A stretch of 64,000 nt of DNA from a phage. Of the stretch, positions 14,733 through 58,078 are shown piece after piece (within the stretch, counting starts at the first letter, position 1; each line of letters opens with the position of its first letter). The notes beneath the pieces were generated by a model. It did no database searches, was not told the DNA's origin, and saw only the letters and a list, made by a program, of their open reading frames with translations. Both the position numbers and the translations under genes were made by a program. Location: the sequence record PZ445451.1, one strand, 5' to 3'.

Positions 14733-15860
14733 ATGAAATACACGATTTATGGTGATATTGTAAGTGTAAATAAAGATATGGGCGTGGAATCTAACTATCT
14801 TCCACCTGGATTCTATACTGTTAGTCGTGATCCCCTTGGCAATTATTTTTTAAGCCGTGGTAATCTGACAGGTGTACCGGATGTTCTGTATGGTGAAACA
14901 GAAAAACGAGCAAATCACGTTATTCGTACATTCCATCGCCGGAGTGCACAAGGTAAAAATACAGGCTTGCTTCTGACAGGAACTAAGGGCAGTGGTAAAA
15001 CTATGTTAGCCAAACTCATTAGTCGTGACCTTGTAGAAGAAGGTATTCCAACTATTATGGTTACTCAAGCCTACAGTGATGCTAATTTCATTGAACTTAT
15101 TAGCAAGATCACAGACAAAGCAGTCATTATTTTTGACGAGTTTGATAAAGTATATGAGAAGAAACAAGATCAAGAAGCACTTCTCACTTTATTAGATGGT
15201 ACTGGCAGTGGTAATAAACTGTTTATTCTGACTAAAAACAGTGGTTTTATCTCTGAATTCTTTTTAAATCGTCCTAGTCGTGTGTTTTATAATTTTAATT
15301 ATGATAAAATCTCACTAGAAACTATGATTGACTATTTAGATAAAAACCTGGATAACAAAGCACACTTTGATAATTTCCAAAGACTTTGGGATGTAAGTTT
15401 AGAGTTGTCCTTTGATGTGATCCAAGGTATAGTAGAAGAACTTAATTTCTATCCTGATTTATCCTTTAAAGAATGCATCTCTATGATGGGCGTTTCTTTG
15501 GGTGGTGGTAATAAATGGGATATCAGCAGCGTTGTTATTAATGGAAAACTTCAGAAAGTTAGCTGGGTATCTAGTTGGCATAACTTCACACCTGCAATCT
15601 TTTTAGGTGGTTCGTGCACACTAGACGTGTACTTGTCATCTCCAAGTGATGCAGACTCTAAAGAAGCCCTTGCTAATAGCTCTTACGTGGTTTTTGATGA
15701 TGAAGGCGATGCTCGAATTCCATTGAATGCGACAAAAATGAAAGCAGATCTTATTACAGGCGGTAAAATAGTTGTGTTTAGTGATGATCCAGAAGATTCT
15801 TTCCGTATTGTTCTGGAACCAACTATCACCAATGGTGCAACTTTGGCAAGTGTGTTTTAA
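14733..15860 (+). CDS. AAA+ ATPase
   Basis: Track ORF; Walker A LLLTGTKGSGKTMLAK, Walker B VIIFDEFDKV; followed by rho-independent terminator. Confidence 0.7.
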   Translation: MKYTIYGDIVSVNKDMGVESNYLPPGFYTVSRDPLGNYFLSRGNLTGVPDVLYGETEKRANHVIRTFHRRSAQGKNTGLLLTGTKGSGKTMLAKLISRDLVEEGIPTIMVTQAYSDANFIELISKITDKAVIIFDEFDKVYEKKQDQEALLTLLDGTGSGNKLFILTKNSGFISEFFLNRPSRVFYNFNYDKISLETMIDYLDKNLDNKAHFDNFQRLWDVSLELSFDVIQGIVEELNFYPDLSFKECISMMGVSLGGGNKWDISSVVINGKLQKVSWVSSWHNFTPAIFLGGSCTLDVYLSSPSDADSKEALANSSYVVFDDEGDARIPLNATKMKADLITGGKIVVFSDDPEDSFRIVLEPTITNGATLASVF

Positions 15861-19755: not shown

Positions 19756-19777
19756 AAATCAAAGAAAGGGTAACACA

Positions 19778-20140
19778 ATGAGCAAGCAAATCAATACTAT
19801 CATGTTAAACCTGGTATCTTTCCGCGATGACGTGAAAAATCTTTCGCGTGATGCAGTGGATGCACGGATCGAAAGCTATCGCACACAGATCGCAACATTA
19901 CCGTTAAAACGTGATCAACATGCCGCTAATATGATGCTTGGTGCTATGATTAAAAAGATGATTCAGTGTGATCTTACCCTGGCTTATGAATATGCTGGCG
20001 ATCTCTTTGTAACGTATAATAAGCCCGTTCCAGGTATGAGCACCACGGAAGAATTGCATGCCTTAAATTTGCGACAAGATGCATGGGATAACATGCGCCG
20101 TGTTATGGTATGGGCCGAAAGCGGTAAAATTTACGAATAA
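19778..20140 (+). CDS. Hypothetical protein (120 aa)
   Basis: Track ORF after promoter-hairpin unit. Confidence 0.55.
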   Translation: MSKQINTIMLNLVSFRDDVKNLSRDAVDARIESYRTQIATLPLKRDQHAANMMLGAMIKKMIQCDLTLAYEYAGDLFVTYNKPVPGMSTTEELHALNLRQDAWDNMRRVMVWAESGKIYE

Positions 20141-20146
20141 AAACGG

Positions 20147-20200
20147 TTGACATTGCACTAAAACCTGATAAGCTATCTTAAAGCGGGAATTGTTCCCGCT
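20147..20200 (+). promoter_or_regulatory. sigma70-like promoter (TTGACA) plus leader hairpin variant (AGCGGGAATTGTTCCCGCT)
   Basis: Seen directly upstream of small gene 20219. Confidence 0.55.
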
Positions 20201-20218
20201 TACATAGGATAAAACTTT

Positions 20219-20365
20219 ATGAAACAATATGTAATGAGTATCCACACCAAAAACGGCGCTACTGTTACGACTCCGGCACGGTTTGCACTTGTAAACCGTT
20301 GCAAGAGACTAAAACGAGAGTTAAAAAATAACCGTGCAACGGGCTTTAAACGCTGGGGAGGATAA
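20219..20365 (+). CDS. Small basic protein (48 aa, MKQYVMSIHTKNGATVTTPARFALVNRCKRLKRE..)
   Basis: Manual ORF below size cut-off; follows promoter-hairpin unit; stop 2 nt before next start. Confidence 0.4.
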   Translation: MKQYVMSIHTKNGATVTTPARFALVNRCKRLKRELKNNRATGFKRWGG

Positions 20366-20367
20366 TC

Positions 20368-20628
20368 TTGTTTTTTCTAAAAGTTTGTGATAATGTGATC
20401 GCTTTTGAACATGCTACAACGTTCGACCTGGCGAGATACGCTATCAGGTTTAAAGATAATGTTTATCCCCGTGCTGGCGGCGGTTACACTATTTTTAATC
20501 ACCGTAACGCTCAATTAACGGATATAACTAATCCAGATCCTGGAGTGTATCGGATAGGCTGGCTACCGTCAAAAGACGCTGCAAGCATGTTTAAGGTGTG
20601 TAAACTACTAACAGAAGAGGCGAACTAA
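20368..20628 (+). CDS. Hypothetical protein (86 aa), probable TTG start
   Basis: Track ORF; start codon TTG preceded by GGGGAGGA SD. Confidence 0.45.
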   Translation: MFFLKVCDNVIAFEHATTFDLARYAIRFKDNVYPRAGGGYTIFNHRNAQLTDITNPDPGVYRIGWLPSKDAASMFKVCKLLTEEAN

Positions 20629-20629
20629 C

Positions 20630-21184
20630 ATGGGGCGTGAATATGTGATCCAGTCCTGGGTAAAGCATGATGCTAATGATCCGCGCATAATACCAGATGA
20701 CATGATCGATCACATGGTAGGGTATAGCGGGGAGCAGATAGGAAATCGAGCGGCAAAGAGCAACGGCAACACCAGGACGCGATCCGTTCGTCCTGGATGG
20801 CTGGCGAATGGTAACGCTGACATTGCAAGCGCCGCAGATCCAAGCGATGACGCTAAAAATAATCCCTTGTACAGCATTGATCCGGCTTTTAAGGTGTTGG
20901 AAGAGTATCCCGCTAAATTAGCCGCACTAGATAAGGCATACGAAGAAAAGCGCATGGCCTGGACTGTATACAACACCGCTAAAATGGTGCTAGATGCAAA
21001 ACTAATTAAAGCCCAGGAGAAGATCAATAAACTTGTTACCATAGCGCAAGAGGAAGACCAGGGCGACCAGGAGGAAGAGGAAGAAATCATGCCTACCCTG
21101 GAAGAGGAAGAGATCCAGCCATACATGCCGACAGAAGAGGAAAAAAGACAAGCCCTAAAAAATTATGAAAATTGCATTGTGTAA
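20630..21184 (+). CDS. Hypothetical protein (184 aa) with acidic C-terminal tail
   Basis: Track ORF; C-terminus EEDQGDQEEEEEIMPTLEEEE. Confidence 0.55.
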   Translation: MGREYVIQSWVKHDANDPRIIPDDMIDHMVGYSGEQIGNRAAKSNGNTRTRSVRPGWLANGNADIASAADPSDDAKNNPLYSIDPAFKVLEEYPAKLAALDKAYEEKRMAWTVYNTAKMVLDAKLIKAQEKINKLVTIAQEEDQGDQEEEEEIMPTLEEEEIQPYMPTEEEKRQALKNYENCIV

Positions 21185-21187
21185 GGC

Positions 21188-21244
21188 TTGACATATGCAA
21201 ACAAGCCCCGTAATATGTACCACATAAAGCGGGGCAACGCCCCA
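21188..21244 (+). promoter_or_regulatory. sigma70-like promoter (TTGACA-N17-TAATAT) plus leader hairpin variant (GCGGGGCAACGCCCC)
   Basis: Seen directly. Confidence 0.55.
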
Positions 21245-21265
21245 TAAGGTGAAATAAAAAATCAC

Positions 21266-21293
21266 TTGACACCTGAAATCAGTAAGCTATAAT
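21266..21293 (+). promoter_or_regulatory. Near-consensus sigma70 promoter (TTGACA-N16-TATAAT), second of a tandem pair
   Basis: Seen directly, about 40 nt upstream of gene 21331. Confidence 0.6.
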
Positions 21294-21330
21294 GCTTATA
21301 TAGATTGAAACATTACTAAGGAATAAAAGC

Positions 21331-21510
21331 ATGGCTATTATTGCAAAGACTGAGATCGTAGGTTTAGATTCTATCATCCTGGCATATGAGGAAGCTATAG
21401 AAATGTATGTGGTTTCCTATGGTGATTATATCCGTGAATATAAATCTATTGATCTAGCTTTTGAATGCTATATTCGCCAGGTCAATAAAGCATATGATGA
21501 TTATCGTTAA
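21331..21510 (+). CDS. Small hypothetical protein (59 aa)
   Basis: Manual ORF just below size cut-off (MAIIAKTEIVGLDSIILAYEE..), downstream of tandem promoters. Confidence 0.45.
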   Translation: MAIIAKTEIVGLDSIILAYEEAIEMYVVSYGDYIREYKSIDLAFECYIRQVNKAYDDYR

Positions 21511-21529
21511 AAGTTTTAGTCTTGTGCTA

Positions 21530-21558
21530 TTGACAACGAACGATAGTACAAGCATAAT
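21530..21558 (+). promoter_or_regulatory. sigma70-like promoter (TTGACA-N17-CATAAT)
   Basis: Seen directly upstream of gene 21606; no leader hairpin in this copy. Confidence 0.5.
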
Positions 21559-21605
21559 AACTTTTATCGGGAATACTCCTAACTAATCAAAAGAGATTAA
21601 AGACT

Positions 21606-21971
21606 ATGGCTAAAAATATCAATGTTTCTGCTTATGCTACCCTGGCTAACACTGCTAAAATTGAACTATCCAGCATTGAAGCGGTACATATTAGCGCCCG
21701 TCGCTGGTTTCAAAAGTCTTATGGTAATACTTATTTCTCTTTGATGGTTGACGTTGAGATCGGCGGTAAACTGATCGAAGTAGTTAACGTTCCGTTTCAA
21801 TATGGTTATGGGGATCATTTTGATACCGTTGCCCTAGAAGAGTTTAGCAAGGTTATCAACCTGGAAGGTAAAGAGTTTTCAAATTATGCTTACCTTTCCC
21901 GCTTTTGCCGTGATAATGGGATCGCTGTATACAGTCATGCAAGCGATGTAAAACGTAAAAAAGATTTATAA
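21606..21971 (+). CDS. Hypothetical protein (121 aa)
   Basis: Track ORF. Confidence 0.55.
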   Translation: MAKNINVSAYATLANTAKIELSSIEAVHISARRWFQKSYGNTYFSLMVDVEIGGKLIEVVNVPFQYGYGDHFDTVALEEFSKVINLEGKEFSNYAYLSRFCRDNGIAVYSHASDVKRKKDL

Positions 21972-21977
21972 AAAGCA

Positions 21978-22036
21978 TTGACAGCACGAATAAAAAGCAT
22001 ATAATACTTATATCGAGAGCGGGAATAGTTCCCGCC
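21978..22036 (+). promoter_or_regulatory. sigma70-like promoter (TTGACA/TATAAT) plus leader hairpin (GCGGGAATAGTTCCCGC)
   Basis: Seen directly upstream of gene 22060. Confidence 0.6.
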
Positions 22037-22059
22037 TCACTGAAAAAGAGATTAACATC

Positions 22060-22299
22060 ATGGCTAAATCTAAAATGTACAACGGTCACAAAAATAAAAC
22101 TCATTGGAATGTAAGCCTTTGGATTAATAATGATGAATCGTTATACTTATACGCTGTAGGTTTAATAAATGAGTGCGGCAATAAAGATAAAGCGGCGGAT
22201 CTGATGTGCTACAGATTAAAACAGGATGGAATCACTCATACACCTGATGGTTTCAAGTATAGTAAAACTGCAATCCGTGCCGCTATGGTAGGAATGTAA
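22060..22299 (+). CDS. Hypothetical protein (79 aa)
   Basis: Track ORF after promoter-hairpin unit. Confidence 0.55.
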   Translation: MAKSKMYNGHKNKTHWNVSLWINNDESLYLYAVGLINECGNKDKAADLMCYRLKQDGITHTPDGFKYSKTAIRAAMVGM

Positions 22300-22308
22300 T
22301 AAAAGCAG

Positions 22309-22368
22309 TTGACAACGTTTTTTAATCTGGTATAGTTTATCGCATAGGGCGGGAAATGGTTTCCCGCC
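22309..22368 (+). promoter_or_regulatory. sigma70-like promoter (TTGACA/TATAGT) plus conserved leader hairpin (GGGCGGGAAATGGTTTCCCGCC)
   Basis: Seen directly; identical hairpin to 19734 copy. Confidence 0.6.
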
Positions 22369-22390
22369 AAATCAAAGAAAGGTTATCATT

Positions 22391-22618
22391 ATGGCTATCG
22401 TTATTGTTCGCGTATCCGGCACGGTTGGAATCTCCCAGGTAGTAGCAGTTATCACCGAGAAGAAAGGGGATGATCTTCACTCCTCATTGAATAGCTGGGC
22501 GGTCGCTAACTTTGGGCAATGGTCGAGCGTTGAGTACATCGAATCCTACCAGGTGCCAACGATTAGCCTGACCGATCTCAACGTTGATCGTCTGTTATGC
22601 CTGGATCAATTAAACTAA
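22391..22618 (+). CDS. Hypothetical protein (75 aa)
   Basis: Track ORF after promoter-hairpin unit. Confidence 0.55.
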   Translation: MAIVIVRVSGTVGISQVVAVITEKKGDDLHSSLNSWAVANFGQWSSVEYIESYQVPTISLTDLNVDRLLCLDQLN

Positions 22619-22626
22619 AAATAATA

Positions 22627-22684
22627 TTGACAAGACAACTAAAATTAGTAAAATGTAATTCATAGGGCGGCAATAGTGCCGCCC
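22627..22684 (+). promoter_or_regulatory. sigma70-like promoter (TTGACA/TAAAAT) plus leader hairpin (GGGCGGCAATAGTGCCGCCC)
   Basis: Seen directly; perfect 8-bp stem. Confidence 0.6.
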
Positions 22685-22705
22685 CTAGTAAGAGAGATTA
22701 TCAAA

Positions 22706-22921
22706 ATGGCTAATATCCGCACCTTGTTAAAAAATGCAAAGCAAGTTTTATTTTCAGATGACGAGTATTTCAACAAAGACATTACAGGCGTGAAAAATTT
22801 AAAAGACGTGAAGGATGTTATCGGTATCCGTGGATCTTTACGTAAAGGTGACATATACGGTAACAAGGTGCAATATAAACTGTCAAAAGATTATGATTTT
22901 ACTTTGACAATTATTTCATAA
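22706..22921 (+). CDS. Hypothetical protein (71 aa)
   Basis: Track ORF; start moved to MANIRT (ATG 22706) because the track start lies inside the leader hairpin. Confidence 0.55.
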   Translation: MANIRTLLKNAKQVLFSDDEYFNKDITGVKNLKDVKDVIGIRGSLRKGDIYGNKVQYKLSKDYDFTLTIIS

Positions 22922-22927
22922 AACTAC

Positions 22928-22988
22928 TTGTAAACCTGGTAAAATAAAGTAAACTATATTCATCAAGGCGGTGGAATAGCCCACCGCC
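22928..22988 (+). promoter_or_regulatory. Weak promoter-like sequence plus leader hairpin variant (GGCGGTGGAATAGCCCACCGCC)
   Basis: Seen directly; stem arms co-vary relative to other copies. Confidence 0.5.
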
Positions 22989-23012
22989 TAACAAAGAGAA
23001 GAGGAAAACATC

Positions 23013-23183
23013 ATGATCACTTTCACTACCCGTGAAGCCGCTCGCAACGTTGCACGTAAAGTTAACGCCGCCAACCTGGGCGCTACGCTTAAAGCCCCGG
23101 TGAAAGATGAATCAGGAAAATGGATCTTTCCTGGTCTGCGTCACGCTGATAAGCTGGGAACATTAACGTTAAAAAATAAATAA
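23013..23183 (+). CDS. Small hypothetical protein (56 aa, MITFTTREAARNVARKVNAANLGATLKAP..)
   Basis: Manual ORF below size cut-off; AGAGAAGAGG SD after hairpin. Confidence 0.45.
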   Translation: MITFTTREAARNVARKVNAANLGATLKAPVKDESGKWIFPGLRHADKLGTLTLKNK

Positions 23184-23190
23184 TATCCGC

Positions 23191-23249
23191 TTGACAGTAG
23201 CATCGTTTATAAGTAAAGTAACAACAACGGCGGGAAATGGTTTCCCGCC
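23191..23249 (+). promoter_or_regulatory. sigma70-like promoter (TTGACA/TAAAGT) plus leader hairpin (GGCGGGAAATGGTTTCCCGCC)
   Basis: Seen directly upstream of gene 23270. Confidence 0.6.
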
Positions 23250-23269
23250 ATCAATAAAGAGATAAGATT

Positions 23270-23629
23270 ATGAAATCAGTAAAAGCAATTAAAACTTACA
23301 TTGTGTCGGCTATTTCTTTTGATGGTACTACAACCGAAAAAGAAAAAATCACCGAACTGATGCGCCGTTTTAACTCTGAATACTGGTATCAATCTAATCG
23401 TGATCGTTATAATAACAATATGGTACAAGCTGTTAAAAGCTGGTTACAAGGTTTACCGTCAGATATCAATATCGCTTTTAATTATAACGAGATCGATCAA
23501 TTATTAATTGAATGGAAGTACATAAAAGAAACAAGCAAAGAAACAACCGTTACCCGTGAGCGGGAAAATTATTGGTTATATATTGCAAGCATGATCGTAA
23601 CTTTGGCAAAATATCATAACGTAGCGTAA
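23270..23629 (+). CDS. Hypothetical protein (119 aa)
   Basis: Track ORF after promoter-hairpin unit. Confidence 0.55.
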   Translation: MKSVKAIKTYIVSAISFDGTTTEKEKITELMRRFNSEYWYQSNRDRYNNNMVQAVKSWLQGLPSDINIAFNYNEIDQLLIEWKYIKETSKETTVTRERENYWLYIASMIVTLAKYHNVA

Positions 23630-23643
23630 TCGAGAGGAAAAAC

Positions 23644-23781
23644 ATGAACGCATCACAGCAGATCGAAAAATTCAACCGCAACAAAGCGAGTAAAGATTGG
23701 AACGAAGAGATCACCAAGAAAGGCGACAAGCGGAACAAAACAAAAAGAGATCGCAGCAGCAAAAGATACTGGAACGAATAA
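23644..23781 (+). CDS. Small basic protein (45 aa)
   Basis: Manual ORF; GAGAGGAAAAAC-ATG SD; followed directly by terminator. Confidence 0.4.
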   Translation: MNASQQIEKFNRNKASKDWNEEITKKGDKRNKTKRDRSSKRYWNE

Positions 23782-23782
23782 C

Positions 23783-23809
23783 AAAAAAGGGCGCAATAAG
23801 CGCCCTTTT
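23783..23809 (+). terminator. Rho-independent terminator (GGGCGC-AATAA-GCGCCC-TTTT)
   Basis: Seen directly. Confidence 0.65.
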
Positions 23810-23899
23810 AGCTTATATAGAGGCTTGTTGCTTATAGGCAAGGGTAACGCCAGGATAAGCCTATAAACCACGTTAGACGGCTTTACAGGAGCTTTAAAA

Positions 23900-24082
23900 A
23901 TGAAATTAGAGGAAATAAGCAAGGCACTAGCCCAGGGGCAAAGGTTATGCGCCCGATATCGTGATCAATATGGCTTCATAACTAGCGGCGTGATCCTGGG
24001 GATGGAAGGCAATAAGATTTTTATTGACACGTTGAAAAACGTTGTATATAGTGACAATATAATCTCAATAAAACATATATGA
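23900..24082 (+). CDS. Hypothetical protein (60 aa)
   Basis: Track ORF; GGAG SD. Confidence 0.45.
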   Translation: MKLEEISKALAQGQRLCARYRDQYGFITSGVILGMEGNKIFIDTLKNVVYSDNIISIKHI

Positions 24083-24090
24083 GGCAAGAA

Positions 24091-24492
24091 ATGAAAAAAT
24101 TATTGATCGCTGGTTTACTCTCTTTTGGCATGGTTGGAACATCTAGCGCGGCGATATCCTCCACAGTAGCAGAATTAAGCGCCGTTGATGCAATGGAAAA
24201 CGTCATGATCATTAATAATGCGATCCCCGATGAAATCATGGAGGATTCACACATGATCGCTTATGGTGCTGTTACACAACTAACGGCAAAAATAGATAAA
24301 TCTATTGTTAATGGCTTAAATGAAGATGTACCATGTGAAATTATTACCAGTGTGCTCACTACTCAAAATTTTACGCCGTGGCTAAAAAGTATTCAAAAAG
24401 TACACAGTACAGCCGCAGATCGTAGCAATGAAAAACTAGTGTCAGCACTTGCAACGTATACCCTAGCAAAATGCACCGAAATAAAAGATTGA
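24091..24492 (+). CDS. Putative secreted protein (133 aa)
   Basis: Track ORF; start moved to MKKLLIAGLLSFGMVGTSSA (signal-peptide-like) with GAGG SD. Confidence 0.55.
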   Translation: MKKLLIAGLLSFGMVGTSSAAISSTVAELSAVDAMENVMIINNAIPDEIMEDSHMIAYGAVTQLTAKIDKSIVNGLNEDVPCEIITSVLTTQNFTPWLKSIQKVHSTAADRSNEKLVSALATYTLAKCTEIKD

Positions 24493-24517
24493 CAACATAG
24501 AAAGCACGTTATAAGAT
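24489..24517 (+). promoter_or_regulatory. sigma70-like promoter (TTGACA-N17-TAAGAT)
   Basis: Seen directly; -35 overlaps stop of upstream gene. Confidence 0.5.
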
Positions 24518-24539
24518 ACACACAACAAAGGAGAACTAC

Positions 24540-24842
24540 ATGAACGGCATAGCTAAAACGTTTTTTCTTTTTTCTGGTGTAAATGATCCATCAATAAAAG
24601 TCGATAGCGTAAAAGAAAACAATACTATCACCGCTAAATTGTTTCAAGATGAAACAAATAACGTGCTAATCATTAATCTTAAAGAAATAACAAAAGGTTA
24701 TTATACTATTGCTTACCATGCGATCTATAATGCTGGTACTAGTGAGGAAGTGCAAACAAGCAACAACGAAAGCGCGGCGCTACCTGGTGATCTGGTGCTG
24801 GGCGTTATCAGTTTAATTGTCAATGATTTTTTTAAGGAGTAA
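24540..24842 (+). CDS. Hypothetical protein (100 aa)
   Basis: Track ORF; AAAGGAG SD. Confidence 0.5.
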   Translation: MNGIAKTFFLFSGVNDPSIKVDSVKENNTITAKLFQDETNNVLIINLKEITKGYYTIAYHAIYNAGTSEEVQTSNNESAALPGDLVLGVISLIVNDFFKE

Positions 24843-25100
24843 AACCATGCCCTATTTACATTTATTTTTCGGTATCTTATTGACAGGATCTTTTTTCTTC
24901 TGTATGCTTGTTTCTATTGTAAACCACGTTTTAAAACATTAAGGAAACAGCATGAAAATTATTCCCGTACAGTATAGCGTAATAAATCCAGCATATGAGG
25001 AAGGAAGGAAAACAAGCATGGCTTTATGTTGTATTGCTACTATAGCCATGTTATTATACACTGTGTTTTAATAGGTTTTATAGTTGTACGCTTTAAAGGC

Positions 25101-48701: not shown

Positions 48702-49274
48702 TTAATGTGTTAATGAAACTGCATAACTAAACACAGGTTCAGATATTACATCGGCTACAGTAATAAAAACGTCCTCGTCTTGCGTTGTTTCTACACGACA
48801 TACAGTTACACCATTTACCACGAATTCAACGCAATGTGGAATATCTTCACAAACGAAGGTAGTGTAAGTAACACCCAAAGCATCATACAAAGATTTAACA
48901 GTGTTTGCAAGTGCCGCAGTTTCTTCTTTTTCTGAGACAATGAATGCTGTAACAATAAGATTGTTTGCATAGTTTAGACTGTCCTCTATAGCCAATGATT
49001 TACAAGGTAGTAATGCAAAATATTTACCTGGTTTAATCAGACCTGCTTCCCATTGATTCAAAATTGCCTGGGATGGTTTAGTAATATAAAATAGATTTTC
49101 ACTTGGGTTATCAATATTACTTCTGGCGATACAACGTGAAGGATTATTAATATCAAATACATGATCAAAATCTACACAAACAGGTAAACTGAAAGGTGTA
49201 AATTTTTTACCTAATAATCCTATGGCTGATAATATGTTTGCTGTGCTTATCTTCCCGTTAAAAGCTAAACGCAT
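48702..49274 (-). CDS. Hypothetical protein (190 aa)
   Basis: Track ORF. Confidence 0.55.
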   Translation of the reverse strand: MRLAFNGKISTANILSAIGLLGKKFTPFSLPVCVDFDHVFDINNPSRCIARSNIDNPSENLFYITKPSQAILNQWEAGLIKPGKYFALLPCKSLAIEDSLNYANNLIVTAFIVSEKEETAALANTVKSLYDALGVTYTTFVCEDIPHCVEFVVNGVTVCRVETTQDEDVFITVADVISEPVFSYAVSLTH

Positions 49275-49498: not shown

Positions 49499-50161
49499 TT
49501 ATTTAATATTCAATTTTGCACAAAGACGTTGTACCGCTTTGGCATCGAACAAACTCCCACGAATAGTTCTCTTTCCTGATTCATTCAGATGCTTTGCAAT
49601 CGTCATATATGGCGTTTTACAAGCTCTGTATGCAACTAAAGAATCTTTTAAAGAAAGCGCAAACTCTCTTGAGCGTTTTGCTTCTTCCGTTTTCGTATAG
49701 TCTGTTCTTTTGTATTTAGGGTTTGCTGCACCAAGAAGCGTTCCCTTCGCTTTTGCTACCTTAAGGCTCTTCTTAACACGATCAGATATTGCACGAGCCT
49801 CTTCTTCTGCCAGAACTGCTAAAATATTTATTATCATATTTTCAGCGGAGGGCATAGTTGCTATTCGTACATTAATCATCTCTAACAAGGTTGCAACAGA
49901 AGCTGTGTTACGTCCAAGACGGTCAACCTTAGCAACAACAAGTGTAGCACCTGTTTCTTTGCAAAGATTAACAGCTTTTACAAGCTCTCTACGTTGCTTC
50001 CAATCGCCTTTACCCGAATAAAACTCTGCAAAGCTACCTACAATAGTATAATTTTCTTGTGAATCCAGGAAGCGTTGAATATCTGCTTCCTGTGATTCTA
50101 TACCATACTGGTTGCCTTGTTGTTTCTTCTTAGAAAGTCGATGATATAGTACAAACTTCAT
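49499..50161 (-). CDS. Small serine recombinase (resolvase/invertase family) with C-terminal HTH
   Basis: Track ORF; N-terminal YHRLSKKKQ (catalytic Ser), VAKVDRLGRN, EEEARAISDRVK, C-terminal HTH ..YMTIAKHLNESGKRTIRGSLF. Confidence 0.8.
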   Translation of the reverse strand: MKFVLYHRLSKKKQQGNQYGIESQEADIQRFLDSQENYTIVGSFAEFYSGKGDWKQRRELVKAVNLCKETGATLVVAKVDRLGRNTASVATLLEMINVRIATMPSAENMIINILAVLAEEEARAISDRVKKSLKVAKAKGTLLGAANPKYKRTDYTKTEEAKRSREFALSLKDSLVAYRACKTPYMTIAKHLNESGKRTIRGSLFDAKAVQRLCAKLNIK

Positions 50162-50434: not shown

Positions 50435-50673
50435 TCGTTGTTACGAGCACTTTCAAGAACCTTGACAACTTCTGCATACTCTACAGCTAAACCAGCACAC
50501 ACTTCAGCTTGTTTTGCAATTGCTTGTTTAAAGAACATAGCGATTGCAACACTCTGTGTTGTGTGAATGTTATCTGCTTTAGTTGATACATGAAGATCAA
50601 AATCTTCTTCATCAAAGGTGAGTTCCATAGTAACAATAAATTTCTCGGTCATAAAAATGCTCCTCTTAAACAA
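50422..50673 (-). CDS. Hypothetical protein (83 aa)
   Basis: Track ORF. Confidence 0.5.
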   Translation of the reverse strand: MFKRSIFMTEKFIVTMELTFDEEDFDLHVSTKADNIHTTQSVAIAMFFKQAIAKQAEVCAGLAVEYAEVVKVLESARNNDWEE

Positions 50674-51175
50674 AATAGAAAGGTTGAGTTAAACCCAGCC
50701 TGTTTTTTGGGTCGTAGACGTACCAAGCATATGCTGTCTTATCAGTACCACCTGCAACAAAAGATGGTCGTTCAGCAAGAACAATCAAATTTGTTGGTGG
50801 ATTCTGTTTATGGAATTCCCTTCGTTTAATAGACTCTAGGAACCCAAGACGCAACAAGTATATGCAAACGTCTGCTTCTTTTAAGCTCTTTTGCAAGAAC
50901 TCAAGTGCAAGTCTGAATGGTGGATTTGTGATTATAATATCCGGCTTAGTATGCCATTCGTGGTTAAAATAATCCTTCCCTTCTTCTAACTCACAATATT
51001 CTGATCCTTCTGGAAAATGTTGATAAATTGCAGCAGCAGCGCCTTTACACGGTTCTGCAAAAATAAAACCTTCTTCTTTAAGGTTATTAAAATCTATTAC
51101 ACTAAATAATGCATTTATACATTTTTGTGGAGTAGGATAGTAATCAGTTGGTGGACGATCATACTTATTTGCCAC
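50666..51175 (-). CDS. Putative DNA amino-methyltransferase (N6-adenine or N4-cytosine)
   Basis: Track ORF; DYYPTP near N-terminus, AdoMet-like FAEPCKGAAAA, catalytic IIITNPPF (D/N-PP-F/Y) motif. Confidence 0.65.
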   Translation of the reverse strand: MANKYDRPPTDYYPTPQKCINALFSVIDFNNLKEEGFIFAEPCKGAAAAIYQHFPEGSEYCELEEGKDYFNHEWHTKPDIIITNPPFRLALEFLQKSLKEADVCIYLLRLGFLESIKRREFHKQNPPTNLIVLAERPSFVAGGTDKTAYAWYVYDPKNRLGLTQPFYFV

Positions 51176-51593
51176 TATTTAAAATCTCCTCTTTTGTGAT
51201 TTCAGGGTTTTCTTCAAAAACCATAATATCTCTTAAGAACGTTAATTCTTCCATAGATACTGGTATTGTATCTTCTTCTGTTTTTCGTTTACATAAATCG
51301 TCAAGAAAGTTTTTAACGCTTTCTGACACATCGTAAAATTTCAACAGTTGATAATCACAGGAGAAGATCCTATCTAGTTCTAACATTCTTTCTAAGATAT
51401 TTTCTGTGTTGCCGTACAACACACGAACCTCTCCGAAAGGGTTGACTAAATATTGTGAATTTCTGAACCATCCCTTTTTAGATACAGTGTAACGCTGTTC
51501 TGCTAAACTTTCAATAAAATTTTTAGCCCTTTTACAGTTTTGTTCTAAAGAGTAGTAGGCTTTTTCTACAAAGATTACAGGTACTGGTAACAT
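51165..51593 (-). CDS. Hypothetical protein (142 aa)
   Basis: Track ORF. Confidence 0.5.
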   Translation of the reverse strand: MLPVPVIFVEKAYYSLEQNCKRAKNFIESLAEQRYTVSKKGWFRNSQYLVNPFGEVRVLYGNTENILERMLELDRIFSCDYQLLKFYDVSESVKNFLDDLCKRKTEEDTIPVSMEELTFLRDIMVFEENPEITKEEILNSGK

Positions 51594-51633
51594 ATCTCCT
51601 CCTAATAACCCCCGTGAGGGGGTTTATGTTAGA

Positions 51634-52287
51634 TTAATTATCAGAGGATACTTTATCAAGTTTTTCAGAGACTGTCAATACTTTTTCTTGTGATTCTTTC
51701 ATTTCTGCTAAAATACTTTCAGCTTCATCACTATCAGGATCACCAGTCAACAGCATACTAATTAGTTGCTCCTTGCTGAAGTTCAGAATATCTTCCGCTG
51801 TTAGCTCCAGTTGTTCTTCAATCTCTTCGACAAAAGTTTCACCGCCTGAAAAAGCATCTCGTAGTTTTGCAACTTCCATCGCTTCTTCTGGGGTTGCCCC
51901 AGCGTCTAAAGCTGCTAAAGCAAAATCTGCCCCACTACCAACAGCATAGTAATCTTCAGTTAAAGGATATGCTCGCGTTGGATTATTACCCTCGTGCATA
52001 TAAATTTTACCGTCTGGGTGAACAACCAATGCCACAAACTCTTCATCTTCTTTATCAGGATCTGACTGGATCACCAAACCTGGGATTGTCTCTTGTGCTG
52101 CCTGGCACTGTAAGTTTTGTTCGAACCAAGAAAAGAAAGTCAGGATAGAAGACAGACGTCCTGCACCACCAACAAGGTAATCCCCAATTTTACGCACTTT
52201 CTTAAAATTTAAAGTGTCTACTCGATTACCTACTGTTACTTTACCGTCAGATAGAATTTTGTTATGTGTTGCAATAATTGTTGTCAT
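51634..52287 (-). CDS. HslV-like / proteasome beta-type Ntn-hydrolase peptidase with acidic C-terminal extension
   Basis: Track ORF; MTTIIATHNKILSDGKVTVGNRV..KKVRKIGDYLVGGAG..AVGSGADFALAALDAG parallels E. coli HslV (MTTIVSVRR..GDGQATLGNTV..KKVRRL..AGFAG..AIGSGGPYA), N-terminal Thr after Met. Confidence 0.7.
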   Translation of the reverse strand: MTTIIATHNKILSDGKVTVGNRVDTLNFKKVRKIGDYLVGGAGRLSSILTFFSWFEQNLQCQAAQETIPGLVIQSDPDKEDEEFVALVVHPDGKIYMHEGNNPTRAYPLTEDYYAVGSGADFALAALDAGATPEEAMEVAKLRDAFSGGETFVEEIEEQLELTAEDILNFSKEQLISMLLTGDPDSDEAESILAEMKESQEKVLTVSEKLDKVSSDN

Positions 52288-52778
52288 TGTACTTCCTCCT
52301 GTAGTGTTTTAAGGACTGCTTTACCACCGCTTACATACTTACGGAGGTAATCAATAGCTCTTAGTGTTTCTTTATCCACAAGAATTTTATTAGTTCTTGT
52401 CAATGGATGATTCAGTAAGTCACTGCAATTTCTTACTAACATAGATTTCTTGTGAAAGATACTGCTAAGAAAAAGAAGTTTAGAATCTTCTTCATCAATC
52501 AGGAGTAATTCTGAATTAGACCCAGCTACATTTATTATACACTCAAACAAGCCTTCTTGACTATCAGATAATTCCTGGTAATATTTAGTTAGCCAATCCT
52601 CTCCTTTTAACCAACTAAAAAACATCTGAACTTTTTGCAAAGTTGTCATGTTCTCTAAACGAAGAGATATTTCTTTTTCAATCTTGTCAATATAAATCTG
52701 TCTAAACTCATTCGGCTTAACTAAGCCAGCTTGATAGCATTCATCAATACCATTGCGATCAATCTCAATTAGCGTCAT
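52284..52778 (-). CDS. Hypothetical protein (164 aa)
   Basis: Track ORF. Confidence 0.5.
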   Translation of the reverse strand: MTLIEIDRNGIDECYQAGLVKPNEFRQIYIDKIEKEISLRLENMTTLQKVQMFFSWLKGEDWLTKYYQELSDSQEGLFECIINVAGSNSELLLIDEEDSKLLFLSSIFHKKSMLVRNCSDLLNHPLTRTNKILVDKETLRAIDYLRKYVSGGKAVLKTLQEEVQ

Positions 52779-52814
52779 TTAACCTCCATAATAGGCATCC
52801 TTGCCTTGTAATTA

Positions 52815-53567
52815 TTAATATACTTCCGTGATGAACTGAGACAAACGGGAACGTTGGTTATCAGCAGTTGTCATTTCAACATAACCAATAAAATCTACAA
52901 TAGCTTCCCTTTCTCCTTCTTCGTTAATAGGAACAACACGATCTAACAAATCACCTAACCCGTTAGCTCTTCGTTTAATTGCATATGTTTGATTAACATC
53001 GCCCATAATGACAATACGTGTATTAAGACCTGCTCGCTCAAGGAGAAGTTTTACTGTGTTTGGTGACATAAGTTGAACTTCATCAATAAGAATAATGCTG
53101 TTATCCCACGTAGCACCTAGTGCATAGTTCGGAATATTAAGTTCAATTTTGCCACTTGCAATATCGTTTTCCAATTTATTTGCAGTCATAAACTGTTGGA
53201 AAATTCTTTTAGTTGACTCGTAGTGTGCTGCTAGTTTATCAGTCTTATCTCCAGATAAGAAACCGATTTGGTCATCACCTACTTCTGTCGGGTTTTTAAG
53301 GAAAATCAACTTTCTGAAGTCACCAGCTTTAAGCATTTGCAATGCTTTCCATAGTGCTGTTGTCGTTTTTCCTGTTCCTGCTGGGGCATTAACAATGGTT
53401 AAATCATTCCAAACCATGCTTCTTACAATAGCTTCTTGATTCCCAACAGGGGTAAATTCATCAAGACGGTAATCATCATTTCCTACTGCTTTAGCCGCAT
53501 AACGACTGGCACGTTTGTCATCATTGGCTGCTGATTGACGACGAGCCTTTGCGGTTTTATTTCCCAT
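52815..53567 (-). CDS. phoH: PhoH-like ATPase
   Basis: Track ORF; Walker A NAPAGTGKTTTA, Walker B/PhoH motif IILIDEVQ..RIVIMGDVNQT. Confidence 0.8.
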   Translation of the reverse strand: MGNKTAKARRQSAANDDKRASRYAAKAVGNDDYRLDEFTPVGNQEAIVRSMVWNDLTIVNAPAGTGKTTTALWKALQMLKAGDFRKLIFLKNPTEVGDDQIGFLSGDKTDKLAAHYESTKRIFQQFMTANKLENDIASGKIELNIPNYALGATWDNSIILIDEVQLMSPNTVKLLLERAGLNTRIVIMGDVNQTYAIKRRANGLGDLLDRVVPINEEGEREAIVDFIGYVEMTTADNQRSRLSQFITEVY

Positions 53568-53583
53568 GTTTGCACTCCTTATA

Positions 53584-53606
53584 AAAGGGGCTTTCGCCCC
53601 TTTGTT
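53584..53606 (-). terminator. GC hairpin plus T-run (AGGGGCGAAAGCCCCT-TTTAT), bidirectional terminator-like
   Basis: Seen directly between lysozyme and phoH. Confidence 0.5.
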
Positions 53607-54106
53607 TAGTTATAAGCGTCTAATGTTCCAGTTTTAAGCACCTGAATTACACGCTCTGCGCGATTAGGCGTTTGGCGATACCATTTACTTTTACGTAAAT
53701 TTATAGAGGCTTGAGTATAATATGAATTACTCACTAAAGTCAAGCTATTTTTGAAAGATTCTGCACCTTTCAATCCCATTTGAAATACCATATTAATAAT
53801 AGCCATTTTACGATTAGAACTTACTTTATCGTAAATAGGAGATAATATGGTGCTTGAATGGATTTGTTGTATCGCTTTCTTTACGTCACTCTCAAAGATT
53901 CTTCTAGCTTCCGCTTCAGTAATAACTCCATTGGTTTTTCTACCTACTAAGTTATCAAGAATGCGTATAGCTTCTGCTTTATCTTTGAGTTTTGTCAGAA
54001 GGTGTCCAATACCAACTGTCCAATACCCTTCGGTATCAGGATATACAGTTAGCTTTAGTCCTTCATCAAAACGTAACATATCAAACACATCAACTACTTT
54101 AGCCAT
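53606..54106 (-). CDS. e: T4-type lysozyme (endolysin, glycoside hydrolase family 24)
   Basis: Track ORF; [66 protein letters not shown] is near co-linear with T4 gpe ([32 protein letters not shown]...NQTPNRAKRVI..GTWDAY). Confidence 0.9.
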   Translation of the reverse strand: [166 protein letters not shown]

Positions 54107-54118
54107 GTTTTCCTTATA

Positions 54119-54262
54119 TTAGTCGCCATCCCCATGATCTAGCTCTTGAAACAGTAGGTGTTCAGGAGACATTTCACGTTTAGGCTTCGTCTTTTTAGTT
54201 TGGGACTTAAGCTCTGTTGCCAAAGCACGAGAAAAGATCTTACGTTTCTGTTTACCTTTCAT
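54119..54262 (-). CDS. Small basic protein (47 aa)
   Basis: Manual ORF MKGKQKRKIFSRALATELKSQTKKTKPKREMSP..; GGAG SD. Confidence 0.35.
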   Translation of the reverse strand: MKGKQKRKIFSRALATELKSQTKKTKPKREMSPEHLLFQELDHGDGD

Positions 54263-54266
54263 ATTG

Positions 54267-54533
54267 TTACTCCGCAATCTGAGCCATGAATTCACGTAGT
54301 TCAGAAAAACCTCCTACGTGGGTTAGCTGTTCACCATCTTCCACAAAAATCTGAGGAAATGTGCGTGGTAGAACACCTGTTTTCTCTAAAACCAGATTCT
54401 GAATCTGATCTAAAGAATAGTCTTCATCTAAGGTAAGGTATTTAAAATCCTGTTCACGCTGTTCCAGTAGAATCTTAGCGTTAGTGCAGAAAGGACAATT
54501 TGGTTTACCGTAGATAATAAAATTCATTTTCAC
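54267..54533 (-). CDS. nrdC: NrdC-like thioredoxin/glutaredoxin
   Basis: Track ORF; 88 aa, IIYGKPNCPFCTNAKILL..FPQIFVEDGEQLTHVGGFSELREF parallels T4 NrdC (VYGYD..CVYCDNAKRLL..QVFAPDGSHIGGFDQLREY). Confidence 0.8.
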   Translation of the reverse strand: MKMNFIIYGKPNCPFCTNAKILLEQREQDFKYLTLDEDYSLDQIQNLVLEKTGVLPRTFPQIFVEDGEQLTHVGGFSELREFMAQIAE

Positions 54534-55360
54534 TCCTTGTTTAAAAGTATAGTTAAAGTTCTTACAATACCGCTATCAACACTTCGCGGATTTAAAGTAG
54601 GATCTGTTTTTAAATAAGATGTTGCTGGTCTGACTGCTTTGGAATTATAGGTTGAAGCAGATACAGGATTAACTGTAACAGACAAATCTATAACAAGAAA
54701 TATCTTTCGTGCAAAATCATACCAAGAAATATAATCTGCACCTGCATAGTGTACAATTTTACTATTTACACCATCTTTTACAAGTTTAAAAATTGTTTCT
54801 GCAAGATCAGGTGCATAAGTAGGACATGATAAATGATCACATACTACATTAAATTCTTTTTGACCACCGTTGTAGCGTTCCAACATAGTTTTCAAAAAGT
54901 TATGTCCAAATTCACTATAAACAGAAGCTGTTCTGATAATAAGTGCTGTAGGACAAACTGCTTGTACTAAAGTTTCACCTAATTGTTTACTGTAACCGTA
55001 GGTGTTCAAGGGGTTTGTTTTACTCTCTTCTGTGCCAGCAACATGTCCATCAAAAACATAGTCTGTTGAAATATGTACAAACTGTATCAGTAAATCATTA
55101 CATGCTTTGGCAATGTTTGTTGCACCGTATGCATTAACATTTATACAGGTGTTAACATCTTCTTCAGCTTTATCTACTGCCGTGTAAGCCGCACAATTCA
55201 CAACAACATCAGGCACGTGCTGTACAAGACTATTCATAACATCTTTAAAGTTGGTAATGTCTATATCACTTGCTTCAATCAAAATAACATCTTCGGGCGC
55301 AACTTTTGCCAAAGACTGTCCTAATTGACCTTTTGAACCAAAGACTAAAAATTTTGTCAA
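54530..55360 (-). CDS. rmlD: dTDP-4-dehydrorhamnose reductase
   Basis: Track ORF; N-terminal LVFGSKGQLGQSL Rossmann motif, size and operon position after rmlC. Confidence 0.8.
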   Translation of the reverse strand: MTKFLVFGSKGQLGQSLAKVAPEDVILIEASDIDITNFKDVMNSLVQHVPDVVVNCAAYTAVDKAEEDVNTCINVNAYGATNIAKACNDLLIQFVHISTDYVFDGHVAGTEESKTNPLNTYGYSKQLGETLVQAVCPTALIIRTASVYSEFGHNFLKTMLERYNGGQKEFNVVCDHLSCPTYAPDLAETIFKLVKDGVNSKIVHYAGADYISWYDFARKIFLVIDLSVTVNPVSASTYNSKAVRPATSYLKTDPTLNPRSVDSGIVRTLTILLNKE

Positions 55361-55911
55361 AATATGATCTCCTTTAGTGTTTTGGCTTCCTGATCTTTTT
55401 GTGACAAGATAGGTTTAAAATTAATATCATTAAAGATTAAATCAAAACCCCAATCTATATTGATATCTGGATCATTCCACGCAAGACTACACTCTGAAGT
55501 CGGATCGTAATATTCCGTACATTTGTATTCAAAATCAGCAATATCACTAATCACAACAAAACCATGAGCGAAACCAGGAGGAATCCAAAATTGTGTTTTA
55601 TTCTTTTCAGATAAGAGAACACCTACCCATTCTCCAAATGTTGGACTACCAACTCTAATATCTACAGCAACATCATAAACTTCACCACGAACACAACGTA
55701 CTAACTTCCCTTGTGGGTTTTTCTTTTGAAAATGAAGCCCACGTAGAACTCCTCGGATAGAACGTGAATGGTTATCTTGGACAAAGTTTTGTTTACCTAT
55801 GTATTGATCATATAAAGCCTGATTAAAACTTTCTAAGAAAAAGCCACGTTCATCTCCGTAAACGTCAGGTTGAATGATCAACAAATCTTCGATTTTTGTT
55901 GCTTGAATCAT
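55357..55911 (-). CDS. rmlC: dTDP-4-dehydrorhamnose 3,5-epimerase
   Basis: Track ORF; ..DERGFFLESF..RGLHFQ..QGKLVRCVRGEVYDVAVDIR..PPGFAHGF typical RmlC cupin motifs. Confidence 0.85.
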   Translation of the reverse strand: MIQATKIEDLLIIQPDVYGDERGFFLESFNQALYDQYIGKQNFVQDNHSRSIRGVLRGLHFQKKNPQGKLVRCVRGEVYDVAVDIRVGSPTFGEWVGVLLSEKNKTQFWIPPGFAHGFVVISDIADFEYKCTEYYDPTSECSLAWNDPDINIDWGFDLIFNDINFKPILSQKDQEAKTLKEIIF

Positions 55912-55923
55912 TTAATTCCCCCT

Positions 55924-56793
55924 TTATTTTAATTTAAGTAAATACTTACCGTAGTCTGTTTTACTTAAAACCTCTCCAGAACTTTTTACAGAGTCTAAAG
56001 TAATCCATTCATTTTTAAAAGCAATCTCTTCCAGGCATGCAACCTTCATACCTTGTTGCTTCTCTATTGCATGAACAAATTGAGATGCTTCCATAAGACT
56101 TTCATGTGTTCCTGTATCCAGCCAAGTGAAACCTCTTCCTAGTTTACAGACACGTAAAGTCTTTTCTTTCCAGTACATCTCATTTATATCCGTAATCTCT
56201 AACTCCCCTCTAGCAGAAGGTTTAACGCTCTTAGCTTTCTGTATAACAGAATTATCGTAAAAGTACAAGCCTGTGATTGCGTAGTTGCTTTTTGGTGTTT
56301 TTGGTTTTTCTTCAATACTCACCACTGTACCTTCAGAATCAAACTCAACAACACCAAATCTTTCAGGATCATTTACGTGATACCCAAAAATATTAGCTCC
56401 ACCATTCTTTTCAATATGTTCTTTAGCAGAATCTAAAATGCTACCAAAACTCTGACCAAAGAACAAATTATCACCTAGAACAAGTGCTACAGAATCTTCA
56501 CCAATAAAGTTCTCACCAATAATAAATGCTTCTGCTAAACCTTTTGGGCTGTTCTGTACTGCATACTGTAGGGAAATACCAAAAGAAGAACCATCACCTA
56601 AAAGATTTACAAAATTAATTTGATCTTCTGGTGTTGTAATTATTAGTATTTCCCTAATTCCAGAAAGCATTAGGACAGAGAGTGGATAATAAATCATAGG
56701 CTTATCGTAAATTGGTAATAGTTGTTTACTAACCCCTTTAGTAACTGGGTAAAGTCTTGTTCCGCTACCACCTGCTAAGATAATACCTTTCAT
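55924..56793 (-). CDS. rmlA: Glucose-1-phosphate thymidylyltransferase
   Basis: Track ORF; [36 protein letters not shown]. Confidence 0.9.
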
Positions 56794-56801
56794 ACTCCTC
56801 C

Positions 56802-57791
56802 TTAAACTTTATTTTCCCACCACTCTTTGTTATCTACATACCAATCAATGGTTGAATAAAGTTTTTCTTCAAATGTGCCTTTAGCTTTCCACCCTAATTC
56901 CTTTTCAATCTTATAAGGATTCACTTCATATCTTAGATCATGTCCAGGTCTATCTGTAACCATCTCAATTAGGCTACAAGCATCTGTTTCAGATGGATAC
57001 ACCGCATCCATATAATCACAAATCATATAGATTACATCAATATTAGTTCTAGGGTTTCTGCTCCCAATATTATATGTTTCTCCAGATTTGCCTTTAGTTA
57101 CTACTAGGTGTAATGCTTCTGCGTGATCGTCAACGTATAACCAGTCTCTTACTTGAAGACCATTGCCATAAACAGGGATTGGTTTATTCATCAAGATATT
57201 TGTTATCGTTTTAGGTATCAGTTTTTCTGGATGATGATATGCTCCAAAATTATTTGAACAATTTGTTATAACTGTCGGAATACCATAAGTACGATGCCAC
57301 GCTCTTACCAAATGATCGCTTGCTGCCTTAGATGCAGCATATGGACTACTTGGCTTATAAGGATTCTGTTCTGTAAACGGATAATCCCCTTCTTCCATAT
57401 CACCATACACTTCATCTGTTGAAATATGATGAAACATTTTAAGATTTGATTTATCTCCCATTAAACGAACAGCTTCTAGAAGATTAAATGTTCCAACAAT
57501 ATTTGAATTTATAAAAACACTCGGTGATGCTATTGAATTATCTACGTGACTTTCTGCTGCAAGATGCATTATATAATCTGGGTTAACATCTGCCACAATC
57601 TTAGCAGTTAACTGAGCATTTGTCAAGTCAACACGACAAAACTTTACATTAGGTGTTTCTGATAAATTTCTAGGGTCTGAAGCGTAACCCCATTTATCTA
57701 TAACGTAAATATCATTCTTAGTATTTTTAGCCAGGAAACGAACTACTGCACTTCCAATAAAGCCTAAACCACCTGTTACTAAGTATTTCAT
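56802..57791 (-). CDS. rmlB: dTDP-glucose 4,6-dehydratase
   Basis: Track ORF; [31 protein letters not shown] (YxxxK), HISTDEVYG. Confidence 0.9.
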
Positions 57792-58078
57792 TTAGTCTCC
57801 TTCCAATTATTCCCTTCAGTAAAAATAATACCTTCATAAAACAACCATCTGGAACCTTTTTCAACAGGAACAGGAATCTCTTCTTCAGTAAAGTTATAAA
57901 CCTCTCTAGCATCTTCTAAAAGTGATGCAAATGTTTTTGGACTTACTGTTACGCGAGGAGCATTGATCAGTTGATCTAGCATCATTCTACTATCCTCCTT
58001 ACCAAACGTGTTGAGAAATAATAGTTTCCGTTTCAATGTTATATTTTTCAAGAAGTTGTGCGTAGGCTTCTTTTGCAT
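57788..58078 (-). CDS. Hypothetical protein (96 aa)
   Basis: Track ORF. Confidence 0.5.
   Translation of the reverse strand: MQKKPTHNFLKNITLKRKLLFLNTFGKEDSRMMLDQLINAPRVTVSPKTFASLLEDAREVYNFTEEEIPVPVEKGSRWLFYEGIIFTEGNNWKETK

Follow-up and report, generated by a model that had tools for sequence, protein, structure and literature searches.

A survey of proteasome-like sequences by Fuchs, Alva and Lupas (Bioinformatics 2021, PMC8665760) brought to light 22 new proteasome homologues, and reported that AAH and CPH also occur in phages. RPC, which is related to PPH and bears a C-terminal extension, was found in proteobacterial genomes only, not in phages. [quoted passage not shown] Two HslV-like proteins, ORF1 and ORF116, are encoded by the Salmonella jumbo phage pSal-SNUABM-04, the genome of which contains no HslU (PMC7823757), and gp116 of the Erwinia phage RAY, another protein of the HslV family encoded in the absence of HslU, co-localises with the phage DNA, and has been suggested by its authors to play a role against host defence systems. 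Phage proteasome homologues devoid of an unfoldase are therefore already published (PMC8665760; PMC7823757) and annotated, and are not a new phenomenon. In this work we describe a gene of this type, located on the minus strand of a stretch of phage DNA of 64,000 nucleotides (sequence record PZ445451.1; hereafter the window), which is 100% identical to Escherichia phage PaulScherrer (MZ501100.1; Justusliebigvirus, phi92-like). The open reading frame (ORF) encodes 217 aa, and starts with MTTIIATHNK (Table 1). The product is an ordinary member of a known family. It belongs to a phage-specific clade, corresponding to PHROG 1040, and the closest described relatives are the PPH and RPC "phage-type" proteasome homologues.

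The gene, bas60_0204 in the PaulScherrer record, is labelled there "putative proteasome component", and sister GenBank records carry the labels "peptidase HslV family", "HslV family peptidase" and "putative 20S proteasome". The feature is thus real and previously annotated. The match to PHROG 1040, "peptidase HslV family", has an E-value of 1.5e-62. The Pfam Proteasome model PF00227 covers only residues 11-63, with a score of 24.4 bits exceeding the gathering cut-off of 22.4. A phmmer search of the PDB aligned residues 8-131 to the HslV proteins of T. maritima (E=2.4e-7) and E. coli (E=6e-6). By sequence comparison the similarity to HslV is real and well above chance, but distant.

Conservation was monitored in an alignment of 60 family sequences, down to 31% identity, one of which is an N-terminally truncated fragment. 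Residues T2, D14, K30, G40/G41/G43, G117-S118-G119, D144, S147 and G148-G149 show no, or almost no, variation. Among them T2, D14, K30, the oxyanion Gly, Ser118 of the GSG motif, D144 and S147 are the counterparts of the catalytic set listed by Fuchs et al. (PMC8665760), namely Thr1, Asp17, Lys33, Gly47, Ser129, Asp166 and Ser169. The residues distinctive of the proteasome-like superfamily of N-terminal nucleophile (Ntn) hydrolases are thus conserved, and the whole set is present in every full-length sequence of the alignment. Methionine aminopeptidase removes the initiator Met when Thr follows, and E. coli HslV also starts with MTT. Since the catalytic set is conserved, and Met removal is to be expected, the protein is very probably an active Thr-nucleophile hydrolase.

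The AlphaFold2 model built on the same alignment has a mean predicted local distance difference test score (pLDDT) of 86.1, with core values >90, and exhibits the alpha-beta-beta-alpha sandwich of proteasome beta subunits. The structures in the PDB most similar to the model, as identified by Foldseek, are HslV, archaeal 20S beta and BPH, all retrieved with a probability of 1.00, E-values from 1e-9 to 1e-10 and a target-normalised template modelling score (TM-score) of approximately 0.65. A previous sequence-only reading of this stretch had taken the start MTTIIAT as the mark of an N-terminal-Thr peptidase of the proteasome/HslV superfamily, and had recommended structure prediction and inspection of the catalytic residues. 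The PHROG, Pfam and Foldseek matches, and the conservation of T2, agree with that assignment. The predicted fold is that of proteasome beta, the catalytic set is intact, and no loss of the triad is seen.

The same reading aligned the protein "block by block" with E. coli HslV. The overall similarity is genuine, but one of the blocks, helix H2, is replaced by an acidic segment. In the model a single long helix, H1 (residues 45-67), is followed by a loop (68-83; DSSP assignment, pLDDT 79-87) at the position of HslV helix H2. Residues 66-84 (ETIPGLVIQSDPDKEDEEF) make up a segment of 19 residues rich in Pro, Gly and acidic residues, 7 being acidic and 1 basic. In the alignment Asp81 is invariant, E82 is conserved in at least 90% of the sequences, and the motif PDKxDE is maintained. 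The distance from the oxyanion Gly to the GSG motif is 78 residues, against 79 in HslV, and the H2 segment has therefore been replaced, not deleted. The acidic C-terminal extension postulated earlier is also present, but spans about 62 residues (156-217) rather than about 40. Helices are predicted at residues 164-169, 172-181 and 188-210, and pLDDT values drop from 84 to 46 along the tail. The proximal part is conserved and the distal part variable (mean conservation 0.52 at 156-183, 0.25 at 184-217), and the proximal motif ELTxExxxxxSKEQLLxLL is retained in an Aeromonas phage orthologue only 36% identical. The tail was also considered as a SAP/HeH-type motif, on the basis of the pattern ELTxExxxxxSKEQLLxLLxxG. 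The assignment was dropped, as it found no support in Pfam scans: isolated tails retrieved nothing relevant at E<=10, and whole long homologues gave no domain match.

HslV (ClpQ) and the phage protein share the fold, the mature N-terminus Thr-Thr-Ile and the equivalents of Asp17, Lys33, Gly45 and GSG. In contrast, sequence identity is only 22-27%, no hslU gene accompanies the phage gene, whereas HslV is encoded in hslVU operons, and the phage protein features the acidic loop in place of H2, so that the model shows H1 only and not both helices, and the extra tail of 62 residues. The two NCBIfam equivalog models for HslV (NF003964 and TIGR03692) gave 34.5 bits, where the cut-off is 137, and 32.2 bits, where it is 157.75. 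Judged on these sequence features, the peptidase is not an HslV orthologue, and the identification as HslV made in the sequence-only reading does not stand in this stricter sense.

The resemblance to PPH and RPC (PMC8665760) is closer. These proteins similarly have a phage or prophage origin, an N-terminal Thr not preceded by a propeptide, a full catalytic set and no H2, and for them too no unfoldase is known and no experimental characterisation is available. The phage protein is encoded by Caudoviricetes, as expected for PPH. Yet PPH measures approximately 140 residues, carries no extensions, and has a true deletion of the H2 region, whereas the phage protein retains the 19-residue acidic segment, and adds 62 residues to a core of about 155. 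The combination of a PPH-like core lacking H2 with a C-terminal extension is that of RPC. RPC has been reported from proteobacterial genomes, while the family described here is found in phages of Proteobacteria. Likeness to PPH and RPC has been judged by the published descriptions of the two groups, the representatives of which are WP_042125023.1 (PPH) and WP_140207863 (RPC). Being phage-borne, devoid of H2, extended at the C-terminus and unaccompanied by an unfoldase, the peptidase fits the "phage-type group I" picture. BPH (PDB 5ovs/5ovt) is also a proteasome-like Thr peptidase with an acidic loop and no known unfoldase, and matches the model structurally (E=1.7e-9). However, the identity is 19%, and BPH retains helices H1-H4, is bacterial, and has not been reported from phages. 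The pSal-SNUABM-04 and RAY genes, likened to the present one by description only, come from other (jumbo) lineages, and probably belong to other subfamilies.

Homologues of the peptidase have been identified in 167 phage records, in 134 of which identity is at least 60%. The family extends to phages of Vibrio (12 records), Aeromonas, Shewanella and Klebsiella, in which the protein surface is divergent. When 1.84 billion cluster representatives were searched exhaustively with the family profile, 8,169 of them matched at E<1e-3, and 58 also at the stricter threshold of E<1e-30. The proteins found next beyond the family are mostly 135-155 aa long, and a second outgroup class includes proteins of 172-182 aa, which score 22-31 bits, below the HslV cut-offs as well. 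The clusters nearest to the family carry either no name, being metagenomic proteins, or the generic label "HslVU peptidase subunit". The family core profile assigns 78-109 bits to compact phage homologues, in which the H2-region linker is reduced to 10-12 residues, and 44 bits to an E. coli HslV sequence, the central part of which agrees with the phmmer alignment. Foldseek detected 51 viral structural models matching the predicted fold at E<1e-3, and outside the family the best of these belong to Caulobacter phages, the proteins being 131-146 aa long and the TM-scores 0.83-0.89. Some members of the family are longer, reaching 379 aa in total, owing to additional C-terminal modules. In the Aeromonas phage 4L372D the peptidase orthologue is directly preceded by gp163 (locus L005, 4432-4983, plus strand), a very divergent Ntn-type paralogue of 183 aa, which begins LTCIIAL as translated from a TTG start, and has VGCG in place of GSG. 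Some phages hence hold two tandem proteasome-like genes.

No HslU was expected next to the peptidase gene, and none is there. HslU, ClpX and Lon are not annotated anywhere in the 150-kb PaulScherrer genome, and no AAA+ gene adjoins the peptidase in six contexts, namely the window, phAPEC8, two metagenomic contigs, Aeromonas phage 4L372D and Vibrio phage 1.193.O. The gene order common to the six contexts is ribonucleotide reductase, glutaredoxin, lysozyme, PhoH, one or two small ORFs, peptidase, methyltransferase/phosphatase, resolvase. Bulk Pfam analysis of 111 non-redundant ORFs neighbouring distant relatives revealed no AAA+ unfoldase family, the "AAA_xx" matches corresponding to PhoH only. 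Similarly, when the ORFs located within four genes of the homologue at 35 distant viral loci were clustered, no family was found in more than about 5 near-duplicate contigs. The sole AAA-family ATPase of the genome is bas60_0109, which has 375 aa, is annotated as "FtsH-like protease", and resides about 36 kb away from the peptidase gene, on the opposite strand and in a different gene block. It has a classic-type AAA domain with weak PDB matches to p97/Cdc48 D2, and no protease domain was detected in it, despite the label. This ATPase is widespread in large phages, whether their hosts are Gram-negative or Gram-positive, and has been identified in 380 phage records, among which are Enterococcus, Bacillus, Staphylococcus and Lactococcus phages with no peptidase match, and Vibrio, with its peptidase-positive records, is not among the top genera. 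The distribution of bas60_0109 does not track that of the peptidase, and the ATPase is thus not a consistent co-occurring partner. A protein of 467 aa encoded next to it (15935-17338, plus strand) contains four CapR-homology repeats and a T5orf172 domain (phrog_681, "endonuclease"), and its gene is probably a homing-endonuclease-like mobile gene.

A more constant companion is ORF164 (bas60_0205, phrog_14834), located immediately upstream. The two genes are translationally coupled, the stop codon of ORF164 and the ATG of the peptidase overlapping in the sequence ATGA. In phAPEC8 the peptidase gene is likewise immediately preceded by an ORF164 homologue (67% identity), and the same holds for two distant contigs (34-38%, E-values from 1e-23 to 1e-29). 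ORF164 has been found in 134 phage records, the same count obtained for the peptidase at the identity level of at least 60%, a match by number and not record by record. The predicted structure is a helical domain (pLDDT 94), for which comparisons of structure and sequence retrieved nothing informative, and which is unrelated to the peptidase. ORF164 is a candidate regulator, adaptor or substrate of the peptidase. The next gene upstream encodes PhoH, a P-loop ATPase which is not an AAA+ unfoldase. PhoH and peptidase genes are syntenic in phAPEC8, L007, L008, Aeromonas 4L372D and Vibrio 1.193.O, and PhoH is found no more than two genes upstream of the peptidase homologue in L027 and L028. In the distant viral contig L057 (4318-5533) a PhoH gene is directly upstream of, and overlaps by 20 nt, the gene for a proteasome homologue of 159 aa. 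Proximity of PhoH and peptidase therefore recurs outside the phi92/phAPEC8 lineage, and may reflect either common ancestry or a functional link.

The module has been lost in one genome sequence. The record MT932211.1 of phage VEcB (region 19000-25000) has an in-frame deletion of 1,122 bp, corresponding to 52102-53223 of the window, the junction of which is marked by an 8-bp direct repeat (GTGCTGC). The deletion fuses residues 1-113 of PhoH to residues 64-217 of the peptidase into a protein of 267 aa (vecB_055), and removes Thr1, the Asp and the Lys of the peptidase, the whole of ORF164 and half of PhoH. If genuine, the deletion suggests that lytic growth in the laboratory does not require the module, which fits an accessory role. 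The peptidase gene sits in a non-structural block, among nucleotide-metabolism and lysis genes. The PaulScherrer annotation includes a separate prohead protease (bas60_0005), and the peptidase gene is accordingly not that of the capsid maturation protease. PADLOC found no defence or anti-defence match for the peptidase or its two neighbours.

We favour, with somewhat better than even confidence, the view that the phage encodes a self-assembling Thr peptidase which does not need an unfoldase and is active in the infected cell, access or targeting being steered by the loop, the tail and possibly ORF164. Upon removal of Met, Thr1 would serve as the nucleophile. The peptidase would self-assemble and function in the absence of an ATP-dependent unfoldase, as proposed for BPH, to which it would be more analogous than to HslUV. 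Its substrates would be peptides, unfolded proteins, or certain proteins of the infected cell. The conserved acidic loop replacing H2, and the acidic C-terminal tail, may govern access to the active site or the binding of partners, and ORF164 might be involved as regulator, adaptor or substrate. The module would be accessory, serving host takeover or conditional fitness, and not essential to morphogenesis. Several points weigh against this scenario. A literature search retrieved no biochemical data on this protein, or on any phage proteasome homologue. That the protein forms rings and is self-compartmentalising is an assumption by analogy, and the absence of H2, instead of substituting for gating, might stop rings from assembling. 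Independence from an unfoldase is argued from negative evidence, the absence of a linked gene, together with the remodelled surface, and a trans-acting partner could be supplied by host HslU, ClpX or ClpA, or by the AAA ATPase of the phage. The deletion in the VEcB record might stem from faulty assembly, or be confined to a minority variant. A second VEcB record, OZ035773.1, is intact.

In a different picture, the protein is not a degradative chamber but a site-specific processing enzyme or transpeptidase, working as a monomer or small oligomer like connectase, and cleaves or ligates one phage or host protein, perhaps ORF164, or else a factor involved in host defence or regulation. The lack of H2 and the added C-terminal module are perhaps incompatible with stacked rings. 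According to Fuchs et al., novel quaternary structures are probable for several of the homologues they describe, and connectase, which has the same catalytic set, is a ligase working as a monomer (PMC8665760). The tight translational coupling to ORF164 would suit an enzyme and its substrate or specificity factor. Yet the protein lacks the insertion that distinguishes connectase, located between strands S3 and S4, its best structural matches (HslV, 20S beta and BPH) form rings, and no substrate candidate has been identified. We consider this picture unlikely, though it is the likeliest of the alternatives. The chances are slimmer still that ORF164 and the peptidase constitute a two-component, ATP-independent "mini-proteasome", in which either ORF164 or the tail recruits specific host proteins, such as defence or stress-response factors, to the self-assembled ring for targeted degradation.

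Three further hypotheses involve a partner of the HslU or AAA type. The peptidase rings might dock on HslU hexamers of the E. coli host, and redirect ATP-dependent degradation, as contemplated in the sequence-only reading. The host does encode HslUV, the phage protein has an HslV-like fold, and its N-terminal Thr is not preceded by a propeptide, as in E. coli HslV. The low identity to HslV, the equivalog scores far under the cut-offs, and the predicted absence of H2 make such hijacking improbable, and the family resides also in phages of Vibrio, Aeromonas, Shewanella and Klebsiella, with a divergent surface. Lys28 of HslV reportedly anchors the C-terminal carboxylate of HslU. In the phage family this position aligns to a variable Thr25, an observation to which we attach little weight. 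Just as improbable is a split ATPase-peptidase pair formed with bas60_0109. In favour are its position as the only AAA-family protein of the genome, with a classic-type domain weakly similar to p97/Cdc48, and its presence in both Stephanstirmvirinae genera which bear the peptidase, but distance, opposite orientation, location in another block and distribution all argue against the pairing, and by eye neither an aromatic-hydrophobic-Gly pore loop nor a HbYX-like C-terminus (the protein ends in ASVF) can be recognised. That the protein is a catalytically dead decoy, poisoning host HslUV by entering mixed or non-productive complexes, as also envisaged earlier, is hardly credible. The general resemblance of the fold to HslV is all that speaks for a decoy, whereas Thr1, Asp, Lys, the oxyanion Gly, GSG and the Asp/Ser pair are invariant throughout the family, and a decoy would have no reason to keep them; the surface predicted to face HslU, moreover, is remodelled.

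The features of the locus are collected in Table 1. The GC hairpin (CCCCC-TCAC-GGGGG) found directly 3' of the peptidase stop codon is followed by TTATT, and then by the Shine-Dalgarno sequence and ATG of the next ORF (51165-51593). It was not called by a terminator consensus scan, and may either terminate transcription weakly or contribute to RNA stability. Promoters and terminators predicted in the interval 50600-54300 are no more numerous than expected from shuffled sequences, and thus permit no inference on transcription units.

Table 1. Features of the peptidase locus and of the AAA ATPase gene, in window coordinates
Feature	Coordinates	Strand	Evidence
Sole AAA-family ATPase of the genome, bas60_0109	14733..15860	+	PF00004 E=1.5e-9; phrog_2376
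GC hairpin 3' of the peptidase stop codon	51609..51622	-	read from sequence
Coding sequence, Ntn peptidase of the proteasome/HslV superfamily (bas60_0204)	51634..52287	-	ORF list, PHROG, Pfam, AlphaFold, Foldseek
C-terminal extension, residues 156-217 (62 aa)	51637..51822	-	three predicted helices; 17 acidic, 5 basic residues
Gly117-Ser118-Gly119 (proteasome Gly128-Ser129-Gly130)	51931..51939	-	invariant, 60/60
Non-helical acidic segment, residues 66-84 (ETIPGLVIQSDPDKEDEEF), replacing HslV helix H2 and pore loop	52036..52092	-	DSSP, alignment
Asp14 to Lys30 codons (proteasome Asp17 and Lys33)	52198..52248	-	D14 and K30 in 59/60; align to HslV D17 and K33
Thr2 codon (mature Thr1 nucleophile upon initiator Met removal)	52282..52284	-	T2 in 59/60; the exception is the truncated fragment
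ORF164 (bas60_0205, phrog_14834), conserved upstream gene	52284..52778	-	ATGA overlap with the peptidase gene
Shine-Dalgarno sequence AGGAGG of the peptidase gene, within the 3' end of ORF164, 7 nt upstream of the start	52295..52300	-	read from sequence
PhoH-like P-loop ATPase, not an AAA+ unfoldase	52815..53567	-	Pfam PhoH E=1.4e-35

Additional genes of the phage are worth mentioning. A full set of dTDP-rhamnose biosynthesis genes (homologues of rmlA, B, C and D; 54530-57800, minus strand), an unusual auxiliary metabolism for a phage, is located just upstream of the glutaredoxin-lysozyme-PhoH-peptidase block. On the other side, a protein of 190 aa (phrog_4806, "histidyl tRNA synthetase"; 48702-49274, minus strand) is encoded beside a serine recombinase/resolvase gene (49499-50161, minus strand), present though the phage is described as lytic. 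The protein is much too short for a genuine synthetase, and several "aminoacyl-tRNA synthetase-like" genes are annotated in the genome. An intein-containing helicase of the UvrD/Rep family is annotated at 3618-6392 of the window, minus strand (68293-71067 of the record), and the DNA polymerase, encoded outside the window, is intein-bearing as well.

The numbers reported above, both of cluster representatives and of viral structural models, indicate that phage proteasome homologues are widespread. The annotation of the gene and the existence of phage homologues lacking an unfoldase were known before, whereas the coupling to ORF164 and the VEcB deletion are described here. The system offers good experimental handles, as the phage belongs to the BASEL collection and infects E. 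coli K-12, the catalytic residue is defined, ORF164 provides a conserved candidate partner, and the natural deletion variant suggests that knock-outs may be viable. If the clade does consist of proteases which work independently of an unfoldase in host takeover or counter-defence, it would represent a new class of phage effectors, and a minimal proteasome of this kind would be relevant to the evolution of gated proteolysis.

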